A stretch of 64,000 nucleotides of DNA from a candidate division WWE3 bacterium (GCA_003599255.1 QZJF01000005.1:32985-96984), one strand, 5' to 3'. Shown: positions 48,345 to 54,431, counted from the first letter of the stretch. Program-made: numbers and translations. The notes: generated by a model from the sequence alone, not told the origin.

Positions 48345-49124
48345 TTGAATTGTATGAAATTATATAAATTTAAACTTACCTATTATATATCTGTTTTAAT
48401 TTTGTTCTTTTCGGTTACTTTTTTGTATGCAGAATCTGGGGGACTAGGCTATACCATACCTGCTGCCTCGGATCTTGGGGAGGACGGAAGTATAGTATCT
48501 TTTAATGGTCAGCAAGTTGCTTTATCCCAAAAAGAGTACGATGAGAATATAATAGGTGTTATCACGGAAAAAGTTGCAGCTTCTATTGAAGATATAAATT
48601 TGGAACAATCCCGTATTGTAGCGGTTACCGGCGAAACAGATGTTTTAGTAAATACAAGCAACGGCAATATTGAAATAGGCGATTATATTACCAGTTCTGC
48701 TGCACCGGGTGTAGGTATGAAGGCTACAAACAGCGGTCAGGTAATAGGTCAAGCTACTCAATCATTTACTTCAGATAATCCTAGTGAAGTAGGGAAGATA
48801 CTAGTGATGCTAAACGTAAAATCTCAGTTTATTAGTCCGGTTGGAAGCACAAACGTATTAACAGCTCTCCGTGCAGGTTTGGACAGTAAATTTCTGGCGC
48901 CTATTATCACACTTAGATATATATTGGCAGTGTTAGTAGCCGCATCCAGCTTCGTCATCGGATTTACTTCTTTTAGAAAAGTATCCGGCAGTAGTGTAGA
49001 AGCTTTGGGCCGTAACCCCCTCGCGAGTGGCTCAATAAGACGTATAGTCTTCTTTAACTTCCTTTTGAATTTCCTGATTATGATGGGAGGGTTGATTTTA
49101 GCTTACTTTATTCTGGTATTATAA
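48345..49124 (+). CDS. Hypothetical secreted/membrane protein (259 aa) occupying the position where the atpB/atpE (a and c subunit) genes normally lie
   Basis: N-terminal hydrophobic signal [16 protein letters not shown], about 170 aa of hydrophilic domain, then a C-terminal 2-TM hairpin. Its loop [17 protein letters not shown] loosely resembles the c-subunit ARQPE loop, but there is no GxGxGxG motif and no TM2 carboxylate. Confidence 0.45.
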
Positions 49125-49153
49125 ATGAGTTTTTAGTGTGATAAACTAATTTT

Positions 49154-49888
49154 ATGCAATTACTGCCCTTGGATTTAGCTGCATTCTTGTCAAAATATCT
49201 TTATCTGATAATCACTTTTGTGATGATTCAGGGTTCGTTGACTTTTGTACTTTTATTTTTATTCATAGATAAAATTACCAGCTCCAGAAAAGTTAAGACG
49301 CAGGAATTGCTGGCAAAACAGGACGCATATGAAGAATCCTTACGTATTCTAAACGATTCCAAAGCACAATCATCCAAGCTCATCCTTGCAGCGCAGGAGC
49401 AGTCTGCCAAAATAATTCAGGGGACAAATTTTCTCAATGATTCATTTAAAGAAAAATTTGCAGAAGAGTTAAAAAGTCTTGTAGATCGTCAGGAGAGCGT
49501 TTTCAAAAATGTTGCGGATGAATTATCCAAGCAATACCAACAGGCTTTTGAGCAGGAAAAGATAACGACGCTGAGCGAACTTACCAAGGTCTCCGATACT
49601 TTACGTTCCGATATGCTGACAAAAGTTGACGAATTTAAATCTGTGTTAGAAAAAAATACTGTGGAGGCAGAGACGGAACTTAAAGGGAGAATTCAACAGG
49701 ATTATGATGAACTTAGTAAAAGGATGAAAGAGTACGAAACCATAAAAATTCAGAAAATAGATGAGAAGATATTTCTTATACTTACCCAAGTTACTAAAGA
49801 CATATTAGGATCGGCTCTTACCATAAATGAACAGGAAGAACTGGTATTTAAGGTGCTAAGTGATGCAAAAGTTAGACAAGGTATCTGA
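49154..49888 (+). CDS. atpF: F-type ATP synthase subunit b-like (N-terminal TM helix plus long coiled coil)
   Basis: One N-terminal TM helix (YLYLIITFVMIQGSLTFVLLFLFI) is followed by about 200 aa of charged heptad-rich helix. The gene lies immediately upstream of delta and alpha. Confidence 0.55.
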   Translation: MQLLPLDLAAFLSKYLYLIITFVMIQGSLTFVLLFLFIDKITSSRKVKTQELLAKQDAYEESLRILNDSKAQSSKLILAAQEQSAKIIQGTNFLNDSFKEKFAEELKSLVDRQESVFKNVADELSKQYQQAFEQEKITTLSELTKVSDTLRSDMLTKVDEFKSVLEKNTVEAETELKGRIQQDYDELSKRMKEYETIKIQKIDEKIFLILTQVTKDILGSALTINEQEELVFKVLSDAKVRQGI

Positions 49889-50402
49889 TATGTACACTTT
49901 AGATTCCCAAACAAAGCAAATAATTCTGGATACTTTAATGACACAATCTGCTGCTTTCGAGCTAATTGAGGAATTGTCATATGCTAATTCATTACTATAC
50001 AAATCTGAGCCTGATAGCGAGTCTACTTATGGTAAAGCGGTAAACAATGTGAAATATTCTGACTTATTGAATCAACTTTTTGCATCCGATGTTCAATCGG
50101 TAAGCCGACCTGAGGAATTATCCAGATTTGTCGAGGAGATCCATAACTGGTTGAAGGATATCGAGCCGGTTAGATACACTGTAGCTTTTAAGCCCGGGAT
50201 GGAGTTTACAAAAAACATGTACAAATGGACAAAAGAAAATATAAGTGGTCAGCACTTAATTGAAATAGAGACAAAGTCTGAAATTATTGGAGGAGTTATC
50301 ATCTCTGCAAATGGACGATATCACGATTTTTCTCTTGAAAAGATTATCAACCAATATTTTTCCTTAAACAAAGATGCAATCTTATCAATACTACAAAAAT
50401 GA
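49860..50402 (+). CDS. atpH: F-type ATP synthase delta (OSCP)-like subunit
   Basis: 180 aa protein between the b and alpha genes. The call rests on size and position; sequence similarity is weak. Confidence 0.45.
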   Translation: MMQKLDKVSDMYTLDSQTKQIILDTLMTQSAAFELIEELSYANSLLYKSEPDSESTYGKAVNNVKYSDLLNQLFASDVQSVSRPEELSRFVEEIHNWLKDIEPVRYTVAFKPGMEFTKNMYKWTKENISGQHLIEIETKSEIIGGVIISANGRYHDFSLEKIINQYFSLNKDAILSILQK

Positions 50403-51880: not shown

Positions 51881-52756
51881 ATGCAGAATAAGAAAGAATT
51901 ATTAGACGAAATAGCAACATTAACCAGCTTAAAAAACATAGTCGAGTCGTACGAAGAAATAGCTGCTTTAAGAATGAGAAAAGTTAAAAAATCTGTTCTT
52001 CAAAACAGAGAATTCTTAACCGGACTTGATGATTTATATCAAAGAGTTATGTTTACCTATAAGTCTTATATTGAGCAGAAAAAAACTGATAAAGACAAAA
52101 AAACATGGTTACCTCTTAACACTAATGGAAAGACTGTATCCGTATTAATATCTTCAAACACAGGATTATATGGCGAAATAATTAGGACATCGTTTGATTA
52201 TTTTATTGACAATATACGAAATAAAAGTACAGATGTTGTCATATGTGGAAGAATAGGCAAACAATTATATGATTCTCTTATTTCCACAGGAAACAGTTTA
52301 CCCGAGTATCAATTCTTTGACCTTCAGGATTCAGGTGTAAATCAAAATGAATTAAAGAAAATTCTTGATTTTATATTAAATTATTCAAATGTCGTAGTGT
52401 ATCATGGATTATATGTCAGTGTTTTGAGTCAGCAACCTACGGCAACTTTTGTTACAGGAAAAGCACTTGAAGTCCAGAGTGCAGATAAAGCAAACGAGTT
52501 GAAATGCATTATTGAGCCTTCTGTACTGGAAGTTACCGAATTCTTTGAAAAACAAATTTTGTCTTCAATTTTCGAACAATCAGTCTACGAAGCTAGTTTA
52601 AGTAAATTTGCATCCAGGATGGTCAGTTTAGATCTTGCCAACGAAAATATTTCGGAGCAAATAAAAAAAGTTAATTTTAAAAAGTTAAAAGTAAAGCACA
52701 ATGATGACAATCTTCAGCAAATAGAAAGGTTGTCCGGTATATCTTTGTGGTCTTAG
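51881..52756 (+). CDS. atpG: F-type ATP synthase gamma subunit
   Basis: 291 aa protein between alpha and beta. LKNIVESYEEIAALRMRKVKKSVLQNREF corresponds to the gamma N-terminal helix ([26 protein letters not shown]). Confidence 0.6.
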   Translation: MQNKKELLDEIATLTSLKNIVESYEEIAALRMRKVKKSVLQNREFLTGLDDLYQRVMFTYKSYIEQKKTDKDKKTWLPLNTNGKTVSVLISSNTGLYGEIIRTSFDYFIDNIRNKSTDVVICGRIGKQLYDSLISTGNSLPEYQFFDLQDSGVNQNELKKILDFILNYSNVVVYHGLYVSVLSQQPTATFVTGKALEVQSADKANELKCIIEPSVLEVTEFFEKQILSSIFEQSVYEASLSKFASRMVSLDLANENISEQIKKVNFKKLKVKHNDDNLQQIERLSGISLWS

Positions 52757-52771
52757 AATTAATAGATTCAT

Positions 52772-54163
52772 ATGAACGAAGAAAATAAACCAACAGGAAA
52801 AATAATAGGAATAAACGGGTCCATAGTTGAAGTTGAATTTCTTGTCGACAAGCCAACTATTAATGATCTGCTTATTCTGGTGGATAATCCAAAAGTAAAA
52901 ATGCAGGTTTACAGGTCTGCATCTCATACCAGTTTTTATTGCATAACTCTTGGATCACTGACGGAGATATCCCGAGGTTCGGTCGTTTACAACACCGGAG
53001 AACAGCTACAAGTGCCTGTTGGTGATCATGTGCTTGGGAGAGTCATTGATATTTTTGGTGAGGCCAAAGACGGCAAGGGAGATATATCTACTGACAATAT
53101 ACGGCCTATATTTAAAGCTACTCCCTCCTACGAAGAAATTAAATCAAATATCGAAATACTCGAAACCGGGATAAAAGTTGTAGATCTGTTTGCACCGCTG
53201 ATCGCGGGAGGAAAAACCGGACTTTTTGGAGGTTCCGGTGTGGGTAAAACAGTTTTGTTGACCGAAATACTTCACAACATAATCAACAAAGACAAAGAAA
53301 AGAATGTTTCGGTTTTCTGTGGTGTAGGTGAACGTACAAGGGAGGGGCATGAGCTAGTACTGGAGCTTGAAAAAAGAGAGGTTTTACCTTATGTTTCCCT
53401 TATTTTCGGAGCAATGGGTGAGAGTCCCTCCGTAAGATATTTAACAGCCCATGCGGCCGCTTCAATTGCAGAATACTTCAGGGACGAGAAGCGTAAGAAT
53501 GTCCTGTTTTTTATTGACAATATGTTTCGTTTTGCTCAAGCAGGTAATGAGCTATCATTGCTAATGAATACAATTCCTTCTGAGGGCGGATATCAGGCAA
53601 CTTTGTCATCTGAGATGGCAAGCATTCATGAAAGACTGGTCACAACACATAACTCAAATATAACCACAATTGAGGCTATTTATCTTCCTGCCGATGATAT
53701 TTTAGATCAGGGAGTTCAGGCGATATATGATTACCTTAATTCTTCCATAGTTCTGTCGCGTGATATCTATCAGGAAGGGAGATTTCCTGCAATAGACATA
53801 GTTTCCTCCGGTTCCAGTGCATTGAATCCGGAAATAGTTTCTCCTTTGCACTATTATGTTTCAGTTCAGGCCCAGAGTCTTCTCAAGAAATCCGATTCTC
53901 TGGAAAGGATAGTTTCGCTGGTGGGCGAAGCAGAGCTTTCGGATGAGGACAGATTGACCTATCAGAGAGTGAAGAAACTGAGAAATTATATGACACAGAA
54001 TTTTTATTCTACTGCAGAACAAACGGGTCGCCCGGGAGCATATGTTGCTTTAGCCACTACTGTACAGGATGCCAGAGACATAATCGACGGTAAATATGAC
54101 GATGTATCAGAAGATAAATTCATGTATATAGGTAGTGCCCATGAGCTTAGAAATCAACAATAG
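52772..54163 (+). CDS. atpD: F-type ATP synthase beta subunit
   Basis: [25 protein letters not shown] matches beta GGKIGLFGGAGVGKTV. The C-terminal [26 protein letters not shown] matches the DELSEEDKLTV...RFLSQPFF region. Confidence 0.9.
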
Positions 54164-54431
54164 CCAAAATAAGAAAAAAGATGACGAATTAGTCGTCAAT
54201 TTAAATATTCGAAGCAGAACGAAATCTTTTTTTAAGGGGCCGGTAAAATCCGTTACAGCCGTGAATGCTACAGGGGAATTTGACATATTACCGCTTCATG
54301 CCAATTTCATTACTCTGATTGAGAGCTTTGTAATAATTGATAAAGGGCTACCTTCGGAAAAAAAGATAGAATTCGACAATGGAGTAGTAAGTGCAATTGG
54401 CGGTAATGTTGATATATATGTCGGAGTGTGA
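54135..54431 (+). CDS. atpC: F-type ATP synthase epsilon subunit (short form, β-sandwich only)
   Basis: 98 aa. [29 protein letters not shown] aligns with the epsilon N-terminal β-sandwich ([24 protein letters not shown]...). The C-terminal helical hairpin is absent. Confidence 0.6.

Follow-up and report, generated by a model that had tools for sequence, protein, structure and literature searches.

The window examined here, a stretch of 64,000 nucleotides (nt) from a bacterium of the candidate division WWE3 (Katanobacteria; Candidate Phyla Radiation (CPR), or Patescibacteria), contains seven co-directional genes on the plus strand (48354-54431) that encode an F-type ATPase in the order X-b-delta-alpha-gamma-beta-epsilon. 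The product of the first gene, X, carries at its C-terminus a hairpin of two transmembrane helices (TMs) which, by profile comparison, derives from the c subunit and from which the ion-binding carboxylate has been lost. The explanation that we consider moderately probable is that this operon encodes an ATP-hydrolysing F-type motor that moves no ions and acts on the cell surface, its membrane sector having been rebuilt around the c-derived X. Because the c-like subunit lacks a group that could bind H+ or Na+, no a subunit is encoded nearby, and F1 looks intact and unbraked, transduction of an ion gradient is not expected of this enzyme.

The homology of X to c subunits is visible only through family profiles, i.e., in profile-to-PDB searches and hhalign comparisons; direct scans of Pfam and NCBIfam give no match for X, which lies below the Pfam gathering threshold, and PF00137 yields weak matches in 4 of 33 relatives, with the best E-value of 0.27. 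A search started with the X-family profile against all PDB chain sequences identifies F-type c subunits as all of its ten best matches. With the profile of the hairpin alone, all eight PDB sequences retrieved at E-values up to 10 are c subunits, the best being that of Chloroflexus (E-value 8.2e-5). An hhalign comparison of the X family with seven canonical c subunits gives the probability of 83.5% and the E-value of 8.3e-6 over 71 columns. Canonical c subunits used as seeds against all open reading frames (ORFs) of the window and of 82 related loci (±10 kb around X, about 20 kb per genome) find X as their sole match, and the Joint Genome Institute pipelines label at least 12 homologues of X as COG0636. 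The gene itself holds the atpE slot, directly upstream of the b gene (atpF). As in c subunits, the two TMs of X are connected by a short polar cytoplasmic loop with the R-Q/N-P motif, and the G-R-N-P-x-A sequence of this loop is the only invariant stretch of the whole protein (109 of 109 homologues). In canonical c subunits, the R-Q/N-P loop contacts gamma and epsilon. Given that the profile search, hhalign, the COG0636 labels and the atpE position all agree, X is a c-subunit (atpE) descendant. The first-pass annotation of this DNA had reported no recognisable c subunit in the operon and an odd protein in place of the missing subunits, the hairpin loop of which faintly echoed that of c; the echo turns out to be genuine homology, and the odd protein is the descendant of c in the atpE position.

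The residue that makes a c subunit an ion carrier is gone from this hairpin. In every profile alignment, D61 of Escherichia coli c aligns with F240 of X; among 359 hairpin-bearing relatives, this position is occupied by F, L, I, V, A, G or T, and by Asp or Glu in none. An acidic residue is absent from the core of either TM in 356 of these 359 proteins, and the three exceptions all have it at position 235. It had been proposed that an Asn replaces the carboxylate; the loss itself is borne out, but the carboxylate position is F240, one residue past N239, and N239 of the window X is Thr in 92 of 109 relatives. Position 235 in TM2, five residues before the lost carboxylate site and nearer to the cytoplasmic face than to the middle of the membrane, is N in most of the 359 relatives (310) and H (34), S (9) or E/D (3) in others, and T239 and S199 are also conserved in the family. 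The TM1 consensus, LRYILAxxVxxxSFxIGFxSFG, contains three conserved Phe residues and one conserved Gly; the GxGxGxG motif has disappeared.

Besides these losses, X has acquired an outward-facing domain. An AlphaFold model (mean predicted local distance difference test score, pLDDT, of 92, with an alignment of 109 homologues) includes a helix (residues 2-19), a beta domain (31-158), a short helix and the hairpin (183-220/222-255), in agreement with the earlier description of a signal sequence, a soluble domain and a C-terminal hairpin of two TMs. The N-terminal segment has a small residue at its -1 position that is conserved in relatives, and in a long class of X proteins, described below, a true TM that follows a cytoplasmic helix-turn-helix (HTH) domain occupies the same position. 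The beta domain, of about 135 amino acid residues (aa), has the fold of the phi29 tail-spike chaperone and of phage capsid-decoration proteins, with sequence identity of 11-17%, and the topology of X puts this ectodomain outside the cell. Beta domains of the X type also occur within neighbouring giant proteins in about 10 loci.

An a subunit (sought with the E. coli a sequence and with a regular expression for the a motif) and a second c subunit (sought with the canonical c seeds) were found neither in the window nor in the 82 related loci, about 1.2 Mb in total; the a subunit is also absent from the loci L086 and L087. The remaining genes of the window encode ribosomal, glycogen-related and giant surface proteins, and no polytopic membrane gene is consistently linked to the operon among the related loci. 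Two candidates for an unrecognised membrane partner were rejected: a recurrent downstream gene with four TMs, considered as an analogue of subunit a, is a Peptidase_M50, and neighbours with 11-13 TMs, considered as H+-pyrophosphatases, are Wzy_C/TPR proteins. The latter, O-antigen-ligase-like membrane proteins of about 730-800 aa, adjoin the X operon in L020, L027, L038, L051 and L055. A passage of Kantor et al. 2013 (PMC3812714) describes, for a closed WWE3 genome, only non-homologous membrane subunits beside a single ATPase operon; this passage, where the matter is touched upon in passing, is the one earlier description of the operon found in the literature, and its support for the lack of a is implicit. 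The claim that atpB and atpE are both missing from the operon therefore stands for atpB, which is found neither in the window nor in the 82 loci, but not for atpE, a c-type gene being present as X. The atypical membrane sector envisaged in the first-pass annotation is upheld by the lack of an a gene in or near the operon, the lack of the ion-binding carboxylate and the tailless epsilon.

The catalytic portion of the enzyme looks functional. The alpha subunit contains the P-loop GDRKTGKT, and its arginine-finger motif SVTRVG is kept in 71 of 74 loci; the P-loop GGSGVGKT and the catalytic motif GVGERTREG (GxGERxREG) of beta are each kept in 67 of the 74. The features of a catalytic alpha3beta3 assembly and of a gamma/epsilon central stalk are all found, and F1 is, judging by these motifs, catalytically competent and, judging by the form of epsilon, unbraked. 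In the 98-aa epsilon, PF02823 takes up residues 22-94, so that the inhibitory C-terminal helices are missing, as had been noticed before; the protein has 96-98 aa here, and the tail is lacking in relatives too, the family median length being 88 aa. The peripheral stalk is less readily recognised. The Pfam OSCP match of delta is weak (E-value 3e-3, below the cut-off), hhalign aligns its C-terminal 65 columns with E. coli delta (probability 78%, E-value 1.8e-5), and the delta homologue in L002 carries PF00213. The b-like protein consists of one N-terminal TM and a long helical region and has no match in Pfam or NCBIfam; its TM contains no polar residue conserved across 73 homologues.

Alpha, beta, gamma and epsilon all fall below the NCBIfam equivalog cut-offs: alpha scores 372-411 bits with the atpA models (cut-offs 484 and 554), beta 453 bits with TIGR01039 (cut-off 463) and gamma 55 bits with TIGR01146 (cut-off 194), and epsilon is under its cut-off as well. 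Their scores with the models of the mycoplasma F1-like ATPases and of the N-ATPases are comparable and also below the cut-offs. A search with the beta subunit yields at least 120 matches with at least 59% identity, and none more distant among the matches listed. By these scores, the ATPase is a divergent F-type lineage of its own.

The family of X is broad. Scanned for the loop motif, the GTDB species representatives contain 230 genomes that encode an X relative, from WWE3, Microgenomates (Levy-, Woese-, Ames-, Roizman- and Shapirobacteria) and unlabelled Patescibacteria. A HMMER search with the hairpin profile against 1.84 billion representatives (clusters at 50% identity) retrieves 643 clusters at E ≤ 1e-3, 363 of them at E ≤ 1e-10; the family spans WWE3, Microgenomates, Parcubacteria and Berkelbacteria. 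Conservation of X upstream of atpF in relatives had been named as a check on its relevance: X, the b-like gene and the operon follow each other in 68 of 71 loci, alpha being found downstream of X in 68 of the 71 loci that extend far enough on that side. The full set of alpha, gamma, beta and epsilon is present in 59 of the 61 loci that extend far enough, and the arrangement is maintained at 31% identity of X and in Parcubacteria.

The genes next to the operon point to the cell surface. The gene divergent from X encodes a protein of 5758 aa, in which a MerR-type HTH domain (aa 28-77) and a single TM (about aa 185-207) precede a body that is repetitive and fibre-like; near the C-terminus there is a Peptidase_S74 chaperone domain. 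Of the 70 loci in which the DNA upstream of X extends for at least 1.5 kb, 58 have, within 2 kb of X, a divergent gene with an N-terminal MerR/HTH_17 domain, and 53 of these 58 HTH-headed proteins have at least 700 aa, often being clipped by the locus edge. The long class of X (88 proteins of 390-590 aa, from Parcubacteria, Sungbacteria and Berkelbacteria) has one or two MerR/HTH_17 domains and a TM fused ahead of the ectodomain and hairpin, and it too heads b-delta-alpha-gamma-beta-epsilon operons, which are followed by a gene for a large protein. Fusion in one lineage and conserved neighbourhood in another argue for a functional tie among the HTH-TM module, X and the giant proteins. The HTH may bind DNA, which would suit a regulator of the divergent operon that is tethered to the membrane, or it may bind a protein.

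These observations can be assembled into the following mechanism. With no a subunit and no carboxylate, the known mechanism for coupling ion flow to rotation cannot operate. Instead, alpha3beta3, held by the b/delta stalk, would hydrolyse ATP, and gamma-epsilon would be turned or twisted against an oligomer of X, probably a ring, the GRNP loop of which would seat gamma and epsilon as in canonical enzymes. The mechanical output would be passed through the membrane to the ectodomains of X at the surface of the cell and perform work there or serve as a signal, acting jointly with the giant surface proteins anchored by the MerR-like HTH-TM module. A more specific version of this scenario is that in a large part of the CPR (WWE3, Microgenomates, Parcubacteria and Berkelbacteria) the sole F-type ATP synthase has become a rotary or torsional motor that is driven by ATP and blind to ions, with a c-ring-derived rotor that bears an extracellular crown of phage-like domains and is physically coupled to giant surface fibres by way of the HTH-TM module; we regard this version as doubtful in its entirety.

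Several points weigh against a surface motor that moves no ions. The polar residue conserved at position 235, mostly N but in some relatives H, E or D, might belong to an unconventional ion site. Given its Phe-rich TM1 without GxGxGxG, X may not pack as a c-type ring. The absence of a and c is seen over about 20 kb per genome around X. The oligomeric state of X and its ring, the hydrolytic direction, the mechanical, non-ionic output at the surface and the absence of atpB elsewhere in the genome are what we infer from the data above. A weak point of the mechanism is that, in the absence of a, the brace for a b stalk with a single TM is unaccounted for, and productive rotation is unexplained. 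Finally, there are loci in which the set of genes is incomplete. In the stalk-less L053, L063, L066 and L074, two of which are labelled Woesebacteria, the gene right after X encodes a shortened alpha (of 429-472 aa, with MIHSF... at the N-terminus), and gamma, beta and epsilon come next, with neither b nor delta. In L029, L040 and L048, X and the b-like gene are found with no F1 genes within 6-10 kb, and the most distant homologue of X, P0118 (L083), is encoded beside gyrA/B with no F1 genes nearby. Because such b/delta-less loci and F1-less X loci exist, the parts of this ATPase can be uncoupled. The rival readings together keep, in our estimate, about two fifths of the probability.

The first of these is that the operon encodes a conventional ion-coupled synthase, a and a normal c being encoded elsewhere in the genome and X being an accessory or minor ring member comparable to c1 of Acetobacterium woodii. 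The size of the inspected segments leaves room for this, hetero-oligomeric rings with carboxylate-less hairpins do exist (the c1 of PDB entry 4bem is itself among the profile matches), and the b/delta stalk, which is normally braced on a, is kept in most loci. However, canonical a and c are lacking from all 82 loci and from the window, X holds the atpE slot in nearly every locus, the membrane subunits mentioned for the closed WWE3 genome are non-homologous ones only, at least in the passage cited above, gamma and epsilon are far below the canonical cut-offs, and one N-terminal helix and one bulky ectodomain per X would crowd the a/c interface. Besides, even if a and c were encoded elsewhere, canonical coupling through X would not be restored, as 356 of the 359 hairpins have no acidic TM residue. 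We therefore deem this reading unlikely.

To the same degree unlikely is the possibility that X and the b-like protein form a surface or envelope module that merely tethers F1 or is independent of it, with X as an anchor or regulator and no rotary transduction. It would accommodate the three loci with X and b without F1 and the X-like gene beside gyrA/B, as well as the stalk-less operons and the sortase and PEGA-domain genes that adjoin X in L040 and L002. Still, invariance in X is confined to the loop whose canonical counterpart touches gamma and epsilon, and gamma and epsilon are always retained together with alpha and beta. (The neighbours of X in L040 comprise a sortase, a PEGA-domain protein, glycosyltransferases and a 290-aa HTH_17/MerR protein.)

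Considerably less probable is that an ion is still moved, via an unconventional site at position 235, together with S199 and T239, and an unrecognised partner protein. The conservation of these three positions speaks for it. Yet Asn, by far the most frequent residue at 235, can neither gain nor lose a proton, the position is near the cytoplasmic boundary, and no conserved polytopic partner is encoded near the operon, the protein with four TMs being a Peptidase_M50 and the 12-TM Wzy_C/TPR proteins occurring in five loci only. Hardly any weight can be given to the view that X is an unrelated neighbouring gene or the operon a decaying relic, which draws on the lack of Pfam and NCBIfam matches for X itself and is contradicted by the synteny over several CPR classes, the homology to c, the conserved motifs in 643 clusters and the intact F1 active sites.

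The question bears on the energetics of a large group of bacteria. According to reviews, nearly all Patescibacteria keep an F-type ATP synthase without a respiratory chain, and whether it runs in reverse to maintain a membrane potential is debated (PMC11665869, PMC13293708). If the enzyme of WWE3, Microgenomates and many Parcubacteria lacks a and an ion-binding c, neither ATP synthesis nor a role in membrane potential is possible for it, and calls of 'complex V present' that are made from alpha and beta matches would be wrong for whole classes. A surface motor in these organisms would be a second, independent case, after mycoplasma, in which a minimal, host-dependent bacterium has put the F1 motor to use at its surface, and with a rotor subunit that is still recognisably c-derived the CPR would preserve an intermediate step, unlike mycoplasma. 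Should the more specific scenario with the phage-like crown and the giant fibres be true, it would be a new class of machine that brings the energy of cytoplasmic ATP to the surface for host attachment, movement or fibre handling, and these organisms would lack an ATP synthase altogether. The association of X with the HTH module, through both fusion and neighbourhood, names concrete candidates for partners.

Features of the operon, of protein X and of the adjoining region, with coordinates in the window
Feature	Coordinates	Strand	Remarks
X	48354..49124	+	256 aa from ATG 48354; longest ORF from TTG 48345
X aa 1-26, predicted signal peptide or uncleaved N-terminal anchor	48354..48431	+	modelled helix 2-19
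X aa 27-165, extracytoplasmic beta domain	48432..48848	+	motif GDxITSSxxPGVGMKA
X aa 183-255, c-type helical hairpin	48900..49118	+	invariant loop G219-R220-N221-P222-x-A224; F240 at carboxylate position
b-like peripheral-stalk subunit, 244 aa	49154..49888	+	from position and architecture
delta (OSCP-like), 170 aa	49890..50402	+	from ATG 49890; longest ORF from GTG 49860
alpha, 498 aa	50374..51870	+	PF00006, 5e-64
gamma, 291 aa	51881..52756	+	PF00231, 5.8e-23
beta, 463 aa	52772..54163	+	PF00006, 2e-61
epsilon, N-terminal beta-sandwich only, 96-98 aa	54141..54431	+	PF02823, 1.2e-8; longest ORF from 54135
Giant divergent neighbour, 5758 aa	30279..47555	-	PF00376, 35.9 bits (above cut-off); PF13884, E-value 4.7e-12
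AT-rich divergent intergenic region, HTH-giant gene to X	47556..48353	.	
Long-class X, examples			P0332, P0341, P0343, P0363, P0371, P0375; loci L082, L086, L087

The gene order and coordinates given in the first-pass annotation hold by ORF, Pfam and NCBIfam annotation. The start of X is set by P0001, a 256-aa hypothetical protein of a candidate division WWE3 bacterium that is identical to X (100%) and the length of which corresponds to the ATG start. Three successive overlaps of 29 nt had been reported, partly because the longest ORFs were taken; the one between delta and alpha (50374-50402) is firm, but with the starts that the gene caller chose on this contig, ATG 49890 for delta and ATG 54141 for epsilon, b and delta do not overlap and beta and epsilon overlap by 23 nt.

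Upstream of X, a spacer of 789 nt contains no ORF longer than 47 aa. Close to the giant gene, 10-41 nt upstream of its ATG, there is a near-perfect palindrome of 32 nt, TTTTCAAATGTTGTTA|TAAAAACATTTGATAA (47565-47596), located just downstream of a sigma-70-like site on the minus strand (47632-47604, 11 of 12 matches). The palindrome has no conserved counterpart in the other loci, so that its interpretation as a MerR operator is unsupported; a scan for sigma-70 sites and terminators equals the shuffled expectation (27 sites versus 26).

The giant gene that is divergent from X is the last of four consecutive giant genes on the minus strand (5771-47555; 2712, 2987, 2404 and 5758 aa), which account for 65% of the window and have a G+C content of 45-48%, versus 36-40% in the flanking DNA. 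Three of them encode Laminin_G_3/ConA-like lectin repeat proteins, and the fourth is the HTH/Peptidase_S74 protein. These four genes and, on the opposite strand, the ATPase operon fill a gap of about 49 kb between rplA and rplJ, by which the secE-nusG-rplK-rplA/rplJ-rplL cluster is split (minus strand, 4523-5732 and 54435-56343). The Rfam L10 leader RF00557 is detected at 5556-5732 with 63.5 bits, and the arrangement of giant gene, ATPase, rplA, rplK and nusG is repeated in a 994-kb relative. Glycogen and polysaccharide genes are found at both ends of the window (397-4433 and 59157-62793), namely, GH57, glycogen synthase, galactose-1-P uridylyltransferase-like, alpha-amylase and GH113; they match the glycogen operon of WWE3 as given in a passage of Kantor et al. 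2013 (PMC3812714).

Among the related loci, a small gene for a four-helix-bundle protein of the 23S_rRNA_IVP/bAvd family is inserted in the ATPase operon in two unrelated cases and at different positions, gamma|beta and beta|epsilon (L002, 14745-15119, and L087, 16976-17368). The accessory protein of diversity-generating retroelements belongs to this family. In L020, a further 'alpha-like' ORF was rejected, being Rho.

Comparison with known systems places the WWE3 operon next to the canonical F1Fo operon (atpIBEFHAGDC), with which it shares the gene order from atpE on (c-like, b, delta, alpha, gamma, beta, epsilon), the alpha and beta motifs, the folds of gamma and epsilon, the C-terminal domain of delta and the c-type hairpin with the R-N/Q-P loop. 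Unlike the canonical operon, it has no a in or near it, a c-like subunit without the carboxylate or GxGxGxG and with an ectodomain of ~135 aa and an N-terminal helix, and a tailless epsilon. Hairpins that have lost the carboxylate, as has X, are known from A. woodii c1 and V-type c rings; there, however, they are a minority beside functional hairpins and a is present, whereas in the X family the sole c-like gene encodes a hairpin without the carboxylate in all cases. The N-ATPases (alternate F1Fo, atpDCQRBEFAG) likewise are a divergent F-type operon, but they keep a and a Na+-binding c, add AtpQ and AtpR and differ from the WWE3 operon in gene order; scores with TIGR03324, TIGR03305 and TIGR03323 are far below the cut-offs, and the extra small membrane genes are absent from the WWE3 operon. 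The ectodomain resembles the C-terminal autochaperone of phi29 gp12 (Peptidase_G2) and phage capsid decoration (cement) proteins, the difference being that X joins it to a membrane hairpin and is encoded in a cellular ATPase operon. In phage proteins of this fold, the domains assemble as trimers.

The mycoplasma Type 2 and Type 3 F1-like X0 ATPases resemble the WWE3 operon in several respects. They lack a and c, one of their proteins combines a signal peptide and an ectodomain with two TMs at the C-terminus (PMC3369863, PMC12994834), they are required for surface functions, i.e., gliding and antibody cleavage by MIB-MIP (PMC3369863, PMC12994834, PMC11864180), and they are demonstrated or proposed to be ATP-hydrolysing motors for extracellular machinery (Beven et al. 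2012, PMC3369863; Berlureau et al. 2026, PMC12994834; for the Mycoplasma mobile gliding motor, PMC11864180). Both these enzymes and the WWE3 operon comprise seven genes, with alpha-, beta-, gamma- and epsilon-like subunits and no a, and both occur in host-dependent bacteria with reduced genomes. The layout of X, matched on published descriptions only, is that of this mycoplasma protein (MSC_0620/MMCAP2_0577). The CPR version differs in that it keeps b and delta in most lineages and has neither the 12-TM nor the small cytoplasmic protein, the descent of its hairpin from c is still recognisable, and it is apparently the sole F-type operon of the organism, whereas the mycoplasma operon is an extra one. 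The alpha and beta encoded in the window score 247-385 bits with the mycoplasma models MSC_0619, MSC_0618 and MMOB1660/1670 (cut-offs 520-850). The stalk-less CPR loci, on the other hand, mirror the mycoplasma enzymes, which are themselves stalk-less. By analogy, the mycoplasma F1-like X0 ATPases are the nearest precedent for a surface-acting motor of the kind proposed here.

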